A stretch of 61,910 bases of DNA, the filler included, from Pseudomonadota bacterium (GTDB taxonomy: Bacteria; Desulfobacterota; Desulfobacteria; Desulfobacterales; JBDRRP01), in NCBI GenBank assembly GCA_043825735.1. It is 4 parts of 4 records of this genome, joined end to end, with 100 filler letters (N's around TTAATTAATTAA, not from the genome) between each part and the next. Parts side by side here need not be neighbours in the genome. Positions count along the whole stretch, not along the records: positions 26,269 to 46,285 come from JBDRRP010000033.1; 3 more parts are not named here. The stretch is one strand, 5' to 3'. Positions 33,001 through 39,000 of the stretch are shown one piece after another; position 1 is the first letter of the stretch; the number at the start of each line of letters is the position of its first letter. Made by a program: the position numbers.

Positions 33001-36000
33001 GTCAAATGTGCCGGTCACGCGCAAATGGCAATGAACATCCCGCTTGTCTTTCAGACCTATCAATGGGACGCCGGCAAGCGGCATTTCTCCATGATACCCA
33101 ATTCGGATTTTGTCTCACAGGTGACCGCGTGGGCCAATCCCACCGACACGATCCTGGTCACGTGCCGGTCCGGGGGCCGCAGCGCCGCTGCGGTCAACCA
33201 ACTCGCAGCGACTGGTTTCACCAACGTCTATGATATTCTTGACGGTATGGAGGGTGACACGGTGAACGATCGCGAAAGCGTCTTTCACGGAAAACGGATG
33301 AAAAATGGCTGGAAAAACTCAGGATTGCCCTGGACCTACGACCTTGATCCGGAACGGATGCAGCTGCCTGAGCGCCAATAGGGCTGACCGGGGCCCGGGA
33401 CGATCGATTTGTCGGATTGGTTAGAAGCCATTTGAAAACCTCCCCTGAGGCCCAATCTCGGCGTTGGACGAATGATTCAATACTCGAAATACCATTTGTA
33501 TTCCTGCGTTTGAATCAATTCGTCCGCCTTGACCTTGGACCTGATTGAAGGTTTTGAAACAGCTTCTATCGACGAGATTCATCGAGAATGATCCATTTCG
33601 GGAGAAAAAACCATGAAATGCCCCAAGTTTTTAAAAAAGGCAGCGGAAAGCAGAATTAAGTACAAAGCCTCACTCGGGCGGCGGATCCTGATGGTGCCGG
33701 TGGTGTTTGCCGCCATTGTGGCTGCAGGCCCTGCCCGTGTGTCATTGGCCCAATCATCGGCCGACCAGTGGCGTTTTGGGGTCACTCCGTACTTCTGGTT
33801 TATCAACCTCGCAGGGGACCTGAGATACAGTCCGATCGCCGGCGGCAGCCCGCACGTGGAAATCAGCAACAAAGACCTCTTGCAAAAACTCGATTTGGGT
33901 TTCATGCTCTCGGGAGAGGCGCGCAAGGGCCGGTGGTCGGTCTTCACCGACGTGATCTACTTCGACCTTTCCTCCCAGGAAAGCCGTGTGAAGGCCGTCG
34001 ATTTCAACCTCGGCGGTCCCGTCAACCCGACCAGCACCGCTTTGGACGCCGGGACCTCGTCGTCCCTGAAGGCCTGGGTATGGACGCTCGCAGGAAGTGT
34101 CGGGGTGGTCGATGGACCGGCAGTGACCCTCGAGGCGCTCGGTGGATTTCGCTACCTTGCGGCAGACGCGAGCACCGACTGGCGTTTGACCGCCACGGTC
34201 ACGGGCCCGGGCGCGGGCCAGGTATTCCAGCGGACGGGAAGTATCTCTCAGAGCGAGGATGTCTGGGACGCCATCGCCGGCGTGCGGGGCAAGGTGCGGC
34301 TTCGGGGCAGCCGATGGGCCATCCCCTATTATGCGGACATCGGTGCCGGAAATTCTGAGTTGACCTGGCAGGGGATGGCGGGACTGTCTTACGGGTTCGA
34401 TTGGGGCGAGGCCATCATCAACTATCGTTACCTGTATTATGATATGAAACAAGGTGGGCTCTTTGAAGATTTGCGCTTTGAAGGTCCGGGGATCGGAATA
34501 ACCTTTCGATTCTGACAGTCCCGTAAAAAGTCCGAATCTCTCGCAAAGCCGCAGAGATCGCAAAGCTAACAAATTAATATTAAAAATGTTTTTCTTGGCG
34601 CACTTGGCGTCTTTGCGAGAAATTGTTTTTTACGGATTCATCAATTTTGACACGAGCAAAAACTAATGTCATCCCAGGAAAGTGAATTGCCATGAAAAAA
34701 GTGGGTATGATTATCGGCGCCGTAATGCTTTTGTTCATCGTGCTCTTCGGATGGTGGTTTTTCAGCCGTCCGGAACGCGGAACGACGGGATCGATCAGCA
34801 CGAAATTCCGATGGCTGGGCCCCAACGACAAGATCGTGGTCGACGGCTTCGACGACCCCAAAGTCAAGGGTGTCGCCTGCCACATTTCCCGGGCCCAGAC
34901 CGGCGGTGTGAAAGGCGCCGTGGGCGTGGCGGAGGACACAAGCGACGCCAGCATCGCCTGCCGTCAGATCGGGCCGATCGAGATCCTTGGCGAGATCAAG
35001 GACGGCGAGCGCGTCTTCGACGAGCGCCGCAGCCTCGCGTTCAAGACGCTTCAGGTCGTGCGCTTCTTCGACCCCGAGCGCAATGTGCTGGTCTACGTGT
35101 CCTACAGCGACCGGGTCATCGAGGGCAGCCCGAAGAACAGCATCAGCACGGTACCCATCATGCCCTGGCCGGCGCCATCACCACCGATCGAAAAGGCCGG
35201 ATCAGAAAACTCATCGCCTCAAAAGTGAATACGCTTATGCAGAATGCGCCAGTAAGTCTCTTCGCACAGGGATGTTGAATCACGGCGTCATGTAGGGCAC
35301 GGAGATTTTATAATTCATATCTCGCGCAGAGACGCAGGGAAAAACACCCTCGCAATTCCATTTTTCGCAGTTCTCTGCGTCTCCGCGCCTCTGCGTGAGA
35401 AATATTCTCTTTGAGTTAAAAACCTCCGTGTGCTCCGTGAACTTTGCAGTGTCATGATTTTGTCCGATTGCAATGGTTTCCGGCTGTAGCTTGAGCATCC
35501 TGGATATGCGGTAAAGCAAAACACCCGCTATCAGTGATAGTGACTGACAGAGAAAGACGTAGTGAAAGGATTACACATGCGACCCGGAGCGGTGCATCCG
35601 ATACGCAGAAATCTTCTGCGTAACACCTTTAACGCGTTCTGTTTTGGTACCGCTGTTGCGGTCGGCGTGTTTGCGGTTGTCCCGATGGTTTGCGCAGAAA
35701 AAGGCGTTACGGAAGAAATCCTGGGCATCTTGAAAGAAAATGATCAAATCAGCCGGAGACTATTGGAAACAAACTCCGGCGCTACCGTCTATGAGATGGT
35801 CTTGATGACGGCGGGCTCATCGTGTAATAAATAACGGGATGAAATCCGGAGGCAGGGTGAGGGCGCCGGATACCGTCCAGCAGTGCACAAATACCCATCA
35901 GGCCCGGAAACAAGGAATAAAAAGGAGACCTGTATGCTGTCAAATTCAGGATTACGCGCGGCCGCCCTCGTGGCAATGCTGGTGTTCTGCAGTGCCGCGG

Positions 36001-39000
36001 CGGTGAGCGCGCAGGAGCGCTCCGGTTGCGTGGCCTGTCATCTCGATGAAGCCATGCTCGTCAAGAATCTCAGCCTCACCAAGGCCAAGACATCGGCCTT
36101 GCAGTCCGGTGCCGGGTGAGGCGGCCAGGTGGTTCCGTTGGAACCGCAGCAGAAGGTCCTCGTTTCAGAAGCATTTCTTTCCACCGAACACGGTGAAGCC
36201 GGTTGTGAAACCTGCCACGGCGGCGACCCGGCCAGCAATGAGAAGGCGCTCGCCCATGCAAAAATGGATCCCAGCCCCTCGATCAACAAGCCCCGGGAAG
36301 CCTGCGGCGGGTGCCACGAAGAGATCGTGGCCACGGCCACCGATTCTTTGCACGCCACCCTGGCCACCTTTCCCGGAATGCTCGAGCGCCGGGCCAACAT
36401 GGATAAATGGGCGCAGGTCGACGAGGCGCGGCAGAACCACTGCAGCAGCTGCCACACGAGTTGCGGCGGTTGTCACGTGAGCCGGCCGCCATTTGCCCAG
36501 AAGGGGTTCGTCAAGGGGCACGTGTTCCAGAAGCATTCGGACCCGCTCAACCAGTGCACCGCCTGCCACGGAAGCCGTGTGGGCAATGAGTTCTACGGGA
36601 TGCGCGGCCAGGGGGATGTCCACGCCGCCAAATCAGGCATGGATTGCGTGAGCTGTCACAAGGCCAAGGAAATGCACGCCGCAGCGCCCGAGAATGCCAG
36701 GAGCCGGTACGACCTGAAGGAAATGCCGGAATGCATCGATTGCCACAAGGCGTTGCGGTCCGGGTCCGTGCGGGAACACACTATTCACAACGGCAAAGTG
36801 CAGTGCCAGGTGTGTCATTCCCAGACCTATGTCAACTGTTACAGCTGCCACGTGGGCAAGGACACCGAGGGGATCGCGTTCTTCCAGAACCAGCGGGAAG
36901 TGGAATCCATGAAGATCGGCCGCAATCCCGACCCGAAGGCCCCTGGTGCCGGGTACCGCTTCATGCTGGTCCGCCATGTGCCGTCGGATCCGGAGATGTT
37001 CGATGCTTACGGCAAGGAGGGCTTCACCAACTTCGCAAACGCACCCACCTGGAAACGGACCTCGCCGCACAACATCCAGCGGCGTACGTGGCAGGCTGCC
37101 AGTTGCAACCACTGTCATGGCAACCAGAAGCTGTTTCTTTCCGAGTCCGATCTGCTGGACTACGAAAAGGCTGCCAACCGGGCGGTGGTCGTCGCCTATG
37201 ATCGCGTACCAAAAGCGCGGCTCAAGACCCGGCACGTTACCGTGGATACGAGCAAGGTGCGCACCGACATGGTGGTGAGTGCTTTGCAATTGCACAACCA
37301 GCTCGAGGAGAAGGGCCTTGTGGTGATCGACGCCCGCAGCGCCGCGGCCTATGCCAAGGGGCACATCGAGGGCGCCATCCATTTTGATCCCGTGACGGGC
37401 GGCCTGCGCACCGGCGCCGACACGGATAAACCCTTTACGCTCGCGCCGCATTCGAAAGTTGCGGAAATTTTCGGGGATCTTGGGATCGCCGCTGGCGACC
37501 GGATCGTCGTCTATGATCAGAACGGCTCGCTGGCCGCCGCGCTGATCGCTGTCCTGGAATGGGCAGGGGCCACGCAGGTCTCCTACCTGGACGGCGGCAT
37601 CGAAGGGTGGCATCACGCCGGTTTTCACACCAGTACCATGGCGTCTACCCGCAAGGCCTGCGCTTTTGGCGGCAAGGAGCAACCATCATTGATCGAGGAC
37701 AGCGCCGGCTTGGCCAGGCTTAGTGAGATGCGCACCGCGGTGGTGCTGGACTCCCGTATGATCGACCGATTCCGGGGTATGACCAAACACGAAAAGGCCG
37801 GCCGGGCCGGGGCCATACCGGGGGCCGTCAATGTACCTTTCGGCGCGCTTTACATGGATAACGGTTTCCTGAAGCCGCCGCGGGAGTTGCTGTGGATGCT
37901 CCAAACCCACGGCATCACCCCGGACAAGACCGTCATCACCACCTGCGATACCGGCGTTGCCGCAGCGGACGCTTTTTTTATCCTGCGCTACCTCGGTTTT
38001 CCCGATGTGCGGGTCCACGACGAAGCCTGGGTGAACTGGAGCCGGACCCGGTAACCTGGAAGCGTCTCCGCCCTGCCGTCATCCGGGCGCGCCGCCATTG
38101 AAAAGGCCGCAGCTTTTGGCTGCGGCCGCACTTAATAGTGGGTTGAAATGCCGTCGGTTCGTGCAGCGCATCTGCGCTCGGGTAATCTATATTGTTGAAA
38201 AAACCTTGCTGCCTTTCAGGGCTTTGTCGATGACATGGAACTGAGCGGTGCGAAGAATGCTGTCCAGCACCGGCAAAATCTCTGCCTTATTGAAGCCGTC
38301 AGCGGCAACCCTACCAGCGCTTTCATCCCTTTGCGCCGGTTCTGAAGTTCGTACTTGATCGGAAGCACCCCGTGTCCATCCAAAAAGCCCCCTCCCCTGG
38401 CCGGTGGGGACAAGGGCGGGGGCGTTCGGGAAAAGACGATCACTTGTTATCGGTGGGTTGTCACCCTCACCCCAGCCCTCTCATCAAGGGAGAGGCAGTA
38501 AGCGGCTTCCCATGGCTGGGCACAATCTAACTGCCGGTTTTTAGGAGCTCAACGCGGACCTTTTTTGACAGTAAATTAAGGATTATTGACCCTGCGGCCT
38601 TATCCGGTGTACTAAAATAACTTTACAAGCTTTATCTGCCGCCGATGACCGTGGAGCATCTGTCGTGGGGAGACAATCTTTGCTCGCCAAGGGCGCCCCG
38701 TGGTTGACGGGTGTTATCGAAATCGCTATCGGGATCGAAATCGCAATCGGCGGTTGCTGTTGCCACGGTGGCGGCAAATGGCGAACCAGGGACAAAATAA
38801 TTGCCAACACCAACACCCGATAGCGATACCGGTCCCGATAGCGATTTCGAGGAACGGCGCGTTTTGCGGCAACATAGGGTTACTGGAGCTTCATAGAGAA
38901 GCGTGAAAGTGATTTTGAACCGCAGAGACCGCAGAGGGCCGCAGAGAATATACTGAAGAATTTGTAAGTTATCTCTGAGCGCTCTGCGTCCTCTGTGGTG

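Follow-up and report, generated by a model that had tools for sequence, protein, structure and literature searches.

The octahaem tetrathionate reductase (OTR) of Shewanella oneidensis (PDB 1SP3; TIGR04315) has a catalytic haem ligated by a Lys residue, according to the available part of PMC13562315. Forms of OTR containing selenocysteine (Sec) have already been annotated in GenBank and catalogued, and were also seen among the OTR loci analyzed in this study. Another multihaem selenoprotein, MccSep/ExtKL of Geobacter sulfurreducens (NF040886), has revealed that Sec plus haem can reduce polysulfide, and it also reduces selenite (PMC13510729). Among the sulfurtransferases, Wolinella Sud binds polysulfide, as stated in the accessible sections of PMC6378623. 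The anaerobic reduction and disproportionation of elemental sulfur and polysulfide are only partly known (PMC13510729, PMC12998232).

The window analyzed here (61,910 nucleotides, filler included, joined from four parts of the Desulfobacterales assembly GCA_043825735.1) carries an apparent gene pair which was confirmed to be a single gene, encoding an eleven-haem cytochrome, probably exported and Sec-containing, joined to a sulfur-carrier domain (Table 1). The initial annotation had merged two gene calls through an in-frame UGA, and direct reading of the sequence (35934-38054, plus strand) indeed revealed one 706-aa CDS, with one TGA within an open frame of 739 codons. Its 11 CxxCH motifs (read at residues 32-395) and two C-terminal rhodanese domains, of which the second contains the catalytic Cys loop (CDTGVA, beginning with Cys671), had also been recognized correctly, and Pfam detected two rhodanese stretches. 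Haem motif 1 is invariant in all 59 alignment rows that reach this site; some family members have 10 haem motifs. A signal peptide was assigned by eye, and the mature product is probably periplasmic.

Table 1. Features of the cytochrome-rhodanese locus (positions refer to the window)
Feature	Position	Strand	Basis or remark
Ribosome-binding site AGGAG	35923..35927	+	6 nt 5' of ATG; direct read
706-aa CDS with read-through of UGA62: undecahaem cytochrome c with fused tandem rhodanese	35934..38054	+	direct read, Pfam
Probable Sec-type signal peptide, aa 1-26, ending A-V-S-A	35934..36011	+	by-eye judgement
Haem motif 1 (CVACH), 5' of UGA	36027..36041	+	missing from database gene calls
In-frame UGA at codon 62, read as Sec62 or perhaps, through tRNA-ReC, as Cys; lies between haems 1 and 2 in a Gly-flanked loop	36117..36119	+	homologue comparison
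Hairpin resembling a bacterial SECIS (stem of 8 bp, loop GUU)	36128..36147	+	folding and covariation
OTR-like multihaem core (aa 86-430) with haems 2-11 and nine conserved His as candidate distal ligands	36189..37223	+	alignment, fold comparison
Conserved Arg153, aligned with invariant Lys of OTR GK..NNF-C/U segment	36390..36392	+	alignment
Haem motif 4 (CSSCH), equivalent of OTR second haem; putative catalytic haem	36441..36455	+	profile alignment to OTR
YGMRGQG loop (aa 221-227), where the catalytic rhodanese domain is predicted to dock	36594..36614	+	mapped from model of homologue P0288
Rhodanese domain 1, without catalytic Cys	37281..37616	+	Pfam
Rhodanese domain 2, catalytic loop C671-DTGVA at 37944-37961	37686..38042	+	Pfam; Cys kept in 145/146 rows
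TAA stop codon	38052-38054	+	direct read
9-bp G+C-rich hairpin, 50 nt past stop, possible terminator	38105..38127	.	T-run on minus strand only; 6 such sites vs 4.8 expected, weak

Comparison with OTR and other described systems

Profile alignments and structure models indicate that the protein is a distant relative of OTR which has lost the Cys/Sec segment and the Lys ligand of that enzyme, and which carries its Sec in a new N-terminal loop. The fold had initially been regarded as unrelated, a view that we do not share: OTR was the best match of the profile search (E 2e-10), of Foldseek (E 9.1e-4) and of VIA (241 aligned, rmsd 4.2; runner-up Z 4.9), and hhalign against 10 OTRs gave a probability of 97.6. 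Haem order and fold place the protein in an OTR-like superfamily, with modest similarity (Foldseek TM 0.31, VIA Z 8.9), but outside the OTR family itself: a TIGR04315 search gave no match at E up to 1 (curated cut-off, 375 bits), and the number of CxxCH motifs is 11 instead of eight.

Haems 3-9 align with OTR haems 1-7 and haem 11 aligns weakly with OTR haem 8, haems 1, 2 and 10 being additional. A basic residue before the second haem is common to both proteins. The Cys/Sec of OTR is located just ahead of its second haem, in an NNF-C/U segment (Sec in 5 and Cys in 7 of 12 canonical OTR loci) that is absent from the present protein. The haem-ligating Lys of OTR, which we take to be that of the sequence GVKHG, is replaced by Phe220, and the second haem of OTR is presumably the catalytic one, which is consistent with published passages.

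Like MccSep/ExtKL (PMC13510729), the present protein is a periplasmic multihaem c selenoprotein split by UGA into two gene calls, and it is likely to share a sulfane-sulfur chemistry. MccSep/ExtKL has five haems, an Ig-like domain and a Sec at position 325 beside the haem-ligating Cys239, whereas here there are 11 haems, Sec62 and no second free Cys; MccSep requires its haem-ligating Cys besides Sec, and no such Cys occurs in this protein. None of the features of that family (a model match, five haems, a haem-ligating Cys together with a C-terminal Sec) was found: the NF040886 profile matched neither this protein nor any other in the genome, and similarity was limited to a short stretch of haem motif shared with 9wt8 (E 9e-4). 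The fold searches, whose library may lack MccSep structures, returned none of them. The locus had been described as a second, unrelated kind of multihaem selenoenzyme; it is indeed unrelated to MccSep beyond the haem motifs, but it is not the second kind, since Sec-type OTRs are already catalogued. It represents a third multihaem-Sec architecture, in which the built-in sulfur carrier points to the substrate.

The C-terminal part is a two-domain sulfurtransferase, as are SseA/MST and RhdA. It scores 116 bits against SseA (cut-off 250) and differs from it in being exported and tied to a multihaem cytochrome. In the catalogued rhodanese selenoproteins (forms 1-5, TsoB) Sec occupies the rhodanese active loop, whereas here it lies in the cytochrome part and the rhodanese keeps Cys671. 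Wolinella Sud, which resembles the exported single-domain rhodaneses of unfused loci, works with a molybdenum polysulfide reductase (Psr); in the present family the partner is a multihaem cytochrome. ExtM (NF040943) was matched weakly (31-34 bits, cut-off 800), through haem-motif similarity only, and an identity with DmsE was rejected, the match being far under the cut-off.

The rhodanese partner and the proposed reaction

The natural fusion had been proposed as a pointer to the substrate, and the link with rhodanese turned out to be stronger than claimed, since members that lack the fusion have a rhodanese gene as a neighbour. Rhodanese was fused or adjacent in 46 of the 48 loci with enough DNA (51 examined): fused in 10 (8 intact, 2 frameshifted), directly downstream in 35 and upstream in 1. 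In contrast, none of 12 canonical OTR loci had a rhodanese neighbour. The 6.8-Mb genome contains about 12 rhodanese-like places. The family has recruited at least four rhodanese subtypes, and many unfused loci encode an exported single-domain form. The thiosulfate-specific rhodanese GF1_13980 of Desulfolithobacter dissulfuricans was rejected as a partner type; at 437 aa it is longer than any partner found, and two supplement files showed no link to the family.

In a complex model of the natural homologue P0288, the catalytic rhodanese domain docked on the cytochrome with a score of 0.69 (best of three controls, 0.09); among solved complexes 116 of 157 came up to the mark for this score, and among mismatched pairs 2 of 215. 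Contact agreement between runs was at least 93%, partner pLDDT at least 89, and the pTM of the full-length model 0.88. In nature the two docked domains belong to a single chain, and they coevolve, circumstances that make a passing score easier to reach. On the rhodanese side, the interface comprises R608-x6-G and aa 633-658 of the catalytic domain, and on the cytochrome side, the loop that directly follows the OTR Lys position; neither residue 62 nor Cys671 is among the residues named. There are strong indications that a dedicated periplasmic rhodanese takes up sulfane sulfur and docks on the cytochrome.

The reading of the product as a sulfur-compound reductase stands in part: a sulfur-compound oxidoreductase is likely, while the substrate, the direction and the Sec/persulfide active site are matters of interpretation. 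We judge it somewhat probable that the protein is a periplasmic persulfide/polysulfide reductase which is fed by its own sulfur carrier and converts sulfane sulfur to sulfide. After recoding of UGA62 with the aid of a SECIS, giving the 11-haem OTR-like cytochrome, the rhodanese (fused here) would dock after its Cys671 has accepted a sulfane sulfur, the source being polysulfide or thiosulfate. Sec62, as a distal ligand or neighbour of an open site, may then attack this persulfide in a pocket that includes Arg153, at haem 4 or close to it, and a quinol-oxidizing membrane cytochrome may deliver two electrons through the haem chain, upon which HS- leaves. Membrane electron-input cytochromes are encoded in several family operons; no electron-donor gene was found beside the locus of this genome, and no universal c3 partner was seen across the loci examined. 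Of the four RNA runs listed, one (X1) had a small share and covered only two short contig pieces, which speaks neither for nor against expression.

Site 62 is occupied by Sec in 33 and by Cys in 23 of 100 full-length sequences, the latter count, made at the protein level, including near-duplicates. In about 20 full-length homologues this site is occupied by Trp, His, Met, Leu, Tyr or another residue, with no compensating Cys, and therefore the site is not essential family-wide. The cytochrome domain has no free thiol or selenol other than Sec62. A free Cys154 was present in 21 of the 25 Tyr62 forms, as well as in a separate lineage with Pro62, and in none of 56 Sec/Cys forms (a pattern of about two events); in the Tyr62 clade, which includes Desulfocapsa sulfexigens, this Cys lies beside the conserved Arg153. 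There are nine conserved non-motif His residues for 11 haems, so that one or two of the haems lack a His partner. The Sec loop was modelled with a pLDDT of 83-85 in one prediction and below 50 in the other.

A more far-reaching proposal is tentative and, in our opinion, rather doubtful. Sec62 would itself ligate the iron of the catalytic haem on the distal side, and the arm bearing it would be mobile, moving away from the haem to collect the sulfur of the docked rhodanese. The catalytic chalcogen of the OTR scaffold would thus occupy three sequence positions round one haem (NNF-C/U, Sec62, Cys154), and the family would mediate a widespread, overlooked sulfane-sulfur respiration in Dsr-lacking Desulfobacterota and a reductive branch in disproportionators such as D. 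sulfexigens. We know of no natural His/Sec-ligated haem c.

The whole anatomy would fit equally well the reverse chemistry, that is, a sulfide:cytochrome oxidoreductase in which HS- is oxidized at the Sec/haem site, sulfur passes to the rhodanese and electrons to quinone or outer-membrane conduits. Two loci adjoin a GSU2203/GSU2204-type porin-cytochrome pair, and the disproportionator D. sulfexigens has a Tyr form. We nevertheless consider this direction unlikely, since OTR and MccSep, the relatives whose activity has been measured, have been described as reductases, and the carriers are Desulfobacterota anaerobes, many of them without dsrA (no match in 26 of 43).

The OTR fold, the promiscuity of MCC enzymes and the His, Met and Tyr residues (possible haem ligands) at site 62 of some homologues are compatible with OTR-like reduction of a small anion (tetrathionate, nitrite or hydroxylamine) at an open haem, Sec merely tuning the haem as a ligand and the rhodanese clearing sulfur by-products. 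The loss of the Lys ligand and of NNF-C/U, the disparity in rhodanese neighbours described above and the presence in this genome of a separate canonical OTR above the cut-off make this explanation improbable.

Selenite or selenium detoxification, or selenium delivery, with haems reducing selenite at Sec and rhodanese carrying selenium, is suggested by the selenite reduction of MccSep, by selA located 1.3-1.6 kb upstream in two loci, and by a LysR gene upstream of another (score 247; the Se-metabolism family has its cut-off at 250). Such neighbours are limited to single clades, Sec-free forms (Cys, Tyr, others) retain the rhodanese, and export plus 11 haems better suits respiration, so that we regard this role as very unlikely.

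Decoding of UGA62 and distribution of the family

Comparison of homologues showed that recoding at UGA62 is conserved and accompanied by a SECIS. Its conservation, already claimed, could be extended: a single TGA was present in 46 of 47 matches, which came from 44 of 401 Desulfobacterota genomes and reached down to 34% identity, the exception being a fragment from query residue 120. It lay at the identical site in 36 of 38 other loci read (of the remaining two, one is frameshifted and one a fragment) and in all 20 further regions, 13 of them new loci, and the stop codon at the aligned site was always TGA. The SGAG-U-GG motif, initially called invariant, is confined to the closest clade; only G-U is invariant across loci, followed by G or A (variants GEG-U-GG, VAG-U-GV and GEG-U-AG).

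The proposed bacterial SECIS hairpin is supported by covariation and synonymous-codon tests. In 34 distinct rows, 90.1% of cells were paired, versus 78.0% in shuffled and at most 47.4% in slid alignments, with 25 double changes, and native codons outfolded synonymous recodings in 31 of 37 loci versus 5 of 185 control windows. Folding of 84 nt of this locus alone (a single sequence, no homologues) gave a z of -0.84, and an Rfam search at the locus gave no match. A UGA conserved at one site, the covarying hairpin, Cys homologues and Sec machinery in the genome together characterize a selenoprotein.

This machinery consists of canonical tRNA-Sec, SelA, SelB and two SelD; selA is present in 41 of 43 other carriers, a count without background rate. 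Contig C107 encodes, directly 5' of a second selB, a UCA tRNA with A1:U72 and U73, which are features given for selC* (PMC5389517, PMC13582414). In this genome tRNA-ReC/SelB* could at times insert Cys at UGA62. That Cys is the main residue inserted here, in an enzyme whose function would be unchanged, has a very low probability in our estimation, given the canonical machinery and the selA count. That the UGA is a real stop, in two genes or a pseudogene, is extremely improbable: all 120 database proteins listed do begin past it, after haem motif 1, but the conserved TGA, the full-length homologues with Cys or other sense codons and the covarying hairpin contradict this, and the downstream part would be left without signal peptide and haem 1.

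The family was rightly said to be missing from the current catalogue: it is absent from NCBIfam 20.0 and from the 119-row catalogue of PMC13188914, and literature and family-model searches found no paper or model on it. The available parts of PMC13490349, PMC9676032, PMC3739170 and PMC12998232 do not mention such a protein, and the ESM Atlas search gave generically named cytochrome clusters only. With 1448 clusters (90% identity level, matches at E up to 1e-20), this is a widespread mis-annotated family, which probably reduces carrier-bound sulfur to sulfide. Its database members are cut at the UGA and labelled 'rhodanese' or 'hypothetical', and are therefore missed by proteomic and marker-gene surveys. 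Two cultured carriers allow a direct test: D. sulfexigens, with a Tyr form (AGF76634.1), and Desulfovibrio ferrophilus, whose protein (no match in three supplement files of PMC13638558) is called from past site 62 (WP_126378598.1).

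The UGA codon carries recoding signals

The gene, as read directly, is a single 706-codon frame interrupted only by the TGA at codon 62; the two gene calls of the initial annotation are one gene read through UGA. No paralogue was found in the same genome. Eleven CxxCH motifs lie between residues 32 and 395, and the second of two rhodanese domains carries the loop C671-DTGVA. The only cysteines outside the haem motifs are 19 (signal), 576 and 671; residue 62 is therefore the sole free thiol or selenol of the cytochrome part.

A search of 401 genomes of the phylum with the cytochrome part (matches kept at E up to 1e-20) gave matches in 44 genomes. 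The TGA was present in 46 of the 47 matches, at identities down to 34%, and the one match lacking it is a fragment, whose N-terminal part, TGA included, lies on another contig. The TGA stands 27-36 residues after haem 1 in 36 of 38 other loci translated (the exceptions being the frameshifted L007 and the fragment L012) and likewise in 20/20 further regions, seven of which are loci already counted. Its context is G-U-(G/A) across loci; the motif SGAG-U-GG, previously described as invariant, occurs in the nearest clade only.

A short hairpin follows the UGA. Its cells were paired at 90.1% on 34 distinct rows, versus 78.0% in shuffles and at most 47.4% when slid, with 25 double changes in the stem; in several loci A-P-L-E is replaced by E-P-L-A, which swaps the hairpin arms and keeps the stem. 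At 31 of 37 loci, which include kin and hence are not independent, folding was better with the native codons than with synonymous recodings (p up to 0.05), versus 5/185 control windows of the same genes. The covarying hairpin and the codon-folding test support the bacterial SECIS proposed earlier.

The genome encodes SelA, SelB, two SelD and tRNA-Sec, and selA occurs in 41/43 other carriers (a raw count, with no background rate). Directly before a second selB there is a UCA tRNA with A1:U72 and U73; it matches the selC*/tRNA-ReC features given in PMC5389517 and PMC13582414, which makes Cys insertion at UGA62 possible in this genome. That the codon is read mainly as Cys here is nevertheless improbable, and a true stop, set beside the recoding signals, is scarcely credible.

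Kinship with octahaem tetrathionate reductase and variation at site 62

The family is distantly related to octahaem tetrathionate reductase (OTR). The cytochrome part, modelled with AlphaFold2 (pLDDT 92.7), had OTR 1SP3 as its best structural match (Foldseek E 9.1e-4, the sole match below 0.001; VIA Z 8.9, 241 aligned, rmsd 4.2, runner-up Z 4.9). OTR was also recovered by profile (E 2e-10) and by hhalign against 10 OTRs (probability 97.6). In the alignment haems 3-9 fall on OTR haems 1-7; haem 11 matches OTR haem 8 weakly. Haem 4 therefore corresponds to the second haem of OTR, which we take to be the catalytic one, and would be the catalytic haem of the family. The catalytic, Lys-ligated haem of OTR sits in the N-terminal module, according to PMC13562315.

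Unlike OTR, the family has neither the NNF-C/U segment nor the GVKHG Lys, and its Arg153 stands opposite the Lys of OTR's GK. The protein matched neither TIGR04315 (OTR) nor NF040886 (the pentahaem selenoprotein MccSep). Conservation is at least 94% for nine non-motif His and 78% for His348, so that one or two of the 11 haems would lack a His partner. At L004, L005 and L009 the haem 3 motif has lost the adjacent His (CxxCK); a His occurs later, within an inserted stretch after the motif.

Among canonical OTRs of the same order, the residue of NNF-C/U, just before the second haem, is Sec at 5/12 loci (L044, L045, L047, L049 and L052, each with a conserved hairpin) and Cys at 7/12. Many Desulfobacterales OTRs contain one TGA. 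The Sec-type OTRs are presumably the OTR selenoprotein row in the 2026 catalogue (PMC13188914).

A cut-off of E 0.001 gives 531 representatives of the family, and one of 1e-20 gives 1448 clusters. None of the 120 near matches listed covers more than 90% of the query, and all start after the UGA; they are named rhodanese, sulfurtransferase or hypothetical, none selenoprotein. Of 100 sequences extending to haem 1, 33 have Sec at site 62, 25 Tyr, 23 Cys (protein sequences only, near-duplicates included), 4 Trp and 12 another residue; in 3 the site is unaligned. Named cultured carriers are Desulfocapsa sulfexigens (Tyr form, fused), Desulfovibrio ferrophilus and a Desulfolithobacter sp. record; Atlas look-alike clusters, a lead only, come most commonly from Chloroflexota, Bacteroidota and other phyla.

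A free Cys154 adjoins Arg153 in 21/25 Tyr62 proteins and in P0129 (Pro62), versus 0/33 Sec and 0/23 Cys forms; P0288 falls within the Tyr clade, yet has Cys62 and Ser154. In a midpoint-rooted tree (87 rows, 352 columns, the site 62 region and 154 taken out; 13 duplicate, fragmentary or misaligned rows omitted) the Cys154 proteins form two lineages. The reciprocity, about two events, with some 20 other homologues lacking both residues, hints that residues 62 and 154 may act in one common pocket at haem 4. The Sec-free Tyr62 clade with Cys154 beside Arg153 (P0295, Desulfocapsa sulfexigens AGF76634.1; P0289-P0308; P0005) carries an additional C-x-C in its first rhodanese domain and is annotated only as rhodanese-related sulfurtransferase.

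Rhodanese coupling and proposed function

Coupling to a rhodanese is a property of the family. The 51 other loci include four pairs that come from one genome each or from close relatives. Of the 51, 8 are intact and 2 frameshifted fusions; the next gene downstream encodes a rhodanese at 35 and the gene just upstream at 1; 1 has a remnant, 1 has none and 3 have too little DNA. A rhodanese was found in 0/12 OTR loci (1.9-4.4 kb); rhodanese-like sites number about 12 in the whole 6.8-Mb genome. The partner proteins fall into exported single-domain, tandem and lipoprotein-like types, so the association has more than one origin. The fused forms are one clade (support 0.987), and Cys671 is kept in 145/146 rows. 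At L079 (genome G240) a tandem rhodanese lies upstream of the cytochrome gene; at L039 (G372) the rhodanese has decayed to a remnant, followed by an Fe/Mn superoxide dismutase gene.

When the two halves of the natural homologue P0288 were folded as separate chains, docking was predicted with a score of 0.69 versus 0.09 for the best of 3 controls. The halves belong to a single natural polypeptide, which makes a high score more likely. The mark is reached by 116/157 solved complexes and 2/215 mismatched pairs (a rough calibration, using our own alignment). Runs had contact agreement of at least 93% and partner pLDDT of at least 89. The predicted interface joins cytochrome residues 221-232, 298, 323-326 and 384-389 to residues 609-658 of the catalytic rhodanese domain; residues 221-227 come directly after the OTR Lys position, and 62 and 671 are absent from the named interface residues. 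The full-length model (pTM 0.88) has a low-confidence Sec loop, modelled at pLDDT 83-85 with a deeper N-terminal alignment. No solved cytochrome-rhodanese complex was among the matches of the structure and profile searches.

We infer, as somewhat better than an even bet, a periplasmic persulfide/polysulfide reductase fed by the rhodanese. The rhodanese would load sulfane sulfur, dock on the cytochrome and pass the sulfur to Sec62 at or near haem 4; with two electrons from the haem chain, sulfide would be released. Observation covers the recoding signals, the architecture, the OTR kinship and the rhodanese coupling; the docking comes from modelling, and the catalytic haem, the part played by Sec, the substrate and the direction are deduced. 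The same chemistry in the reverse direction is unlikely. An OTR-like anion reductase, which has the kinship in its favour and the missing Lys and NNF-C/U segment against it, is slightly less likely still, and selenium handling is rather improbable. dsrA matched in this genome but in only 17/43 carriers, so the enzyme is independent of the Dsr pathway.

The family was claimed as a second, unrelated kind of multihaem selenoenzyme beside MccSep. It is absent from NCBIfam 20.0, is unrecognisable among the rows of the 2026 catalogue, and no paper on it was found among open-access literature; multihaem selenoproteins as such are not new, since MccSep and Sec-OTR are known. The novelty is an OTR-derived family with Sec relocated and a dedicated sulfur carrier.

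Genomic neighbours

Electron-input neighbours vary between loci: a NapC-like 7-haem membrane cytochrome upstream (L004, L005, L009), a 9-haem cytochrome with a cytochrome b domain and further rhodaneses (L060, L065, L073), or a GSU2203/GSU2204-type pair (L069; also L078, by ORF size and motif count). None of these lies beside the gene in this window. Genes resembling, by sequence, an Ech-type hydrogenase cluster follow L004 and L005. Between two rhodanese genes of the same operons, L062, L065, L071, L072 and L073 encode a 610-760-aa protein with 6-8 CxxCH, which had no NCBIfam family over cut-off and no match in this genome. The closest relative is L010 (83% DNA identity over the gene). The two upstream single-domain rhodaneses resemble the partner in L023.

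Features of the window (several contigs joined), of the studied genome (G000) and of related loci
Feature	Position	Strand	Remark
Cytochrome-rhodanese gene	window 35934-38054; G000:C33:9666-11783	+	
TGA, codon 62	window 36117-36119		
Hairpin	window 36128-36147		
MalT-like LuxR regulator	window 26415-29159; L010:4502-7300	+ (window)	near gene
Single-domain rhodanese	window 30948-31619	+	loop CRSGDR; 3-5 kb upstream of gene
SsuA/NMT1-like binding protein	window 31619-32854		between the two upstream rhodanese genes
Single-domain rhodanese	window 33025-33381	+	loop CRSGGR; looks N-terminally truncated; upstream of gene
Exported 300-aa protein	window 33613-34515	+	C-terminal Phe; no Pfam/NCBIfam match; probably an outer-membrane barrel
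90-aa ORF	window 35562-35834	+	signal-like start; just before gene; no family match, no paralogue in genome; possibly a gene remnant
Short inverted and direct repeats	window 38720-39000		ATCGC-type, GCAGAG-type; gap before RND efflux operon (39058-45845)
Group II intron 3' end	window 46147-46223	-	end of C33; Rfam RF00029, 55.5 bits
selC*-like tRNA, then selB*	G000:C107:92540-94559		UCA, A1:U72, U73
Second Sec-type selD	G000:C107:101127-102053		~7 kb beyond selC*/selB*
610-760-aa protein, example	L065:3902-5731	-	6-8 CxxCH
selA	L060:4340-5728; L061:3138-4526		two or three genes upstream of family gene; two genomes, one genus
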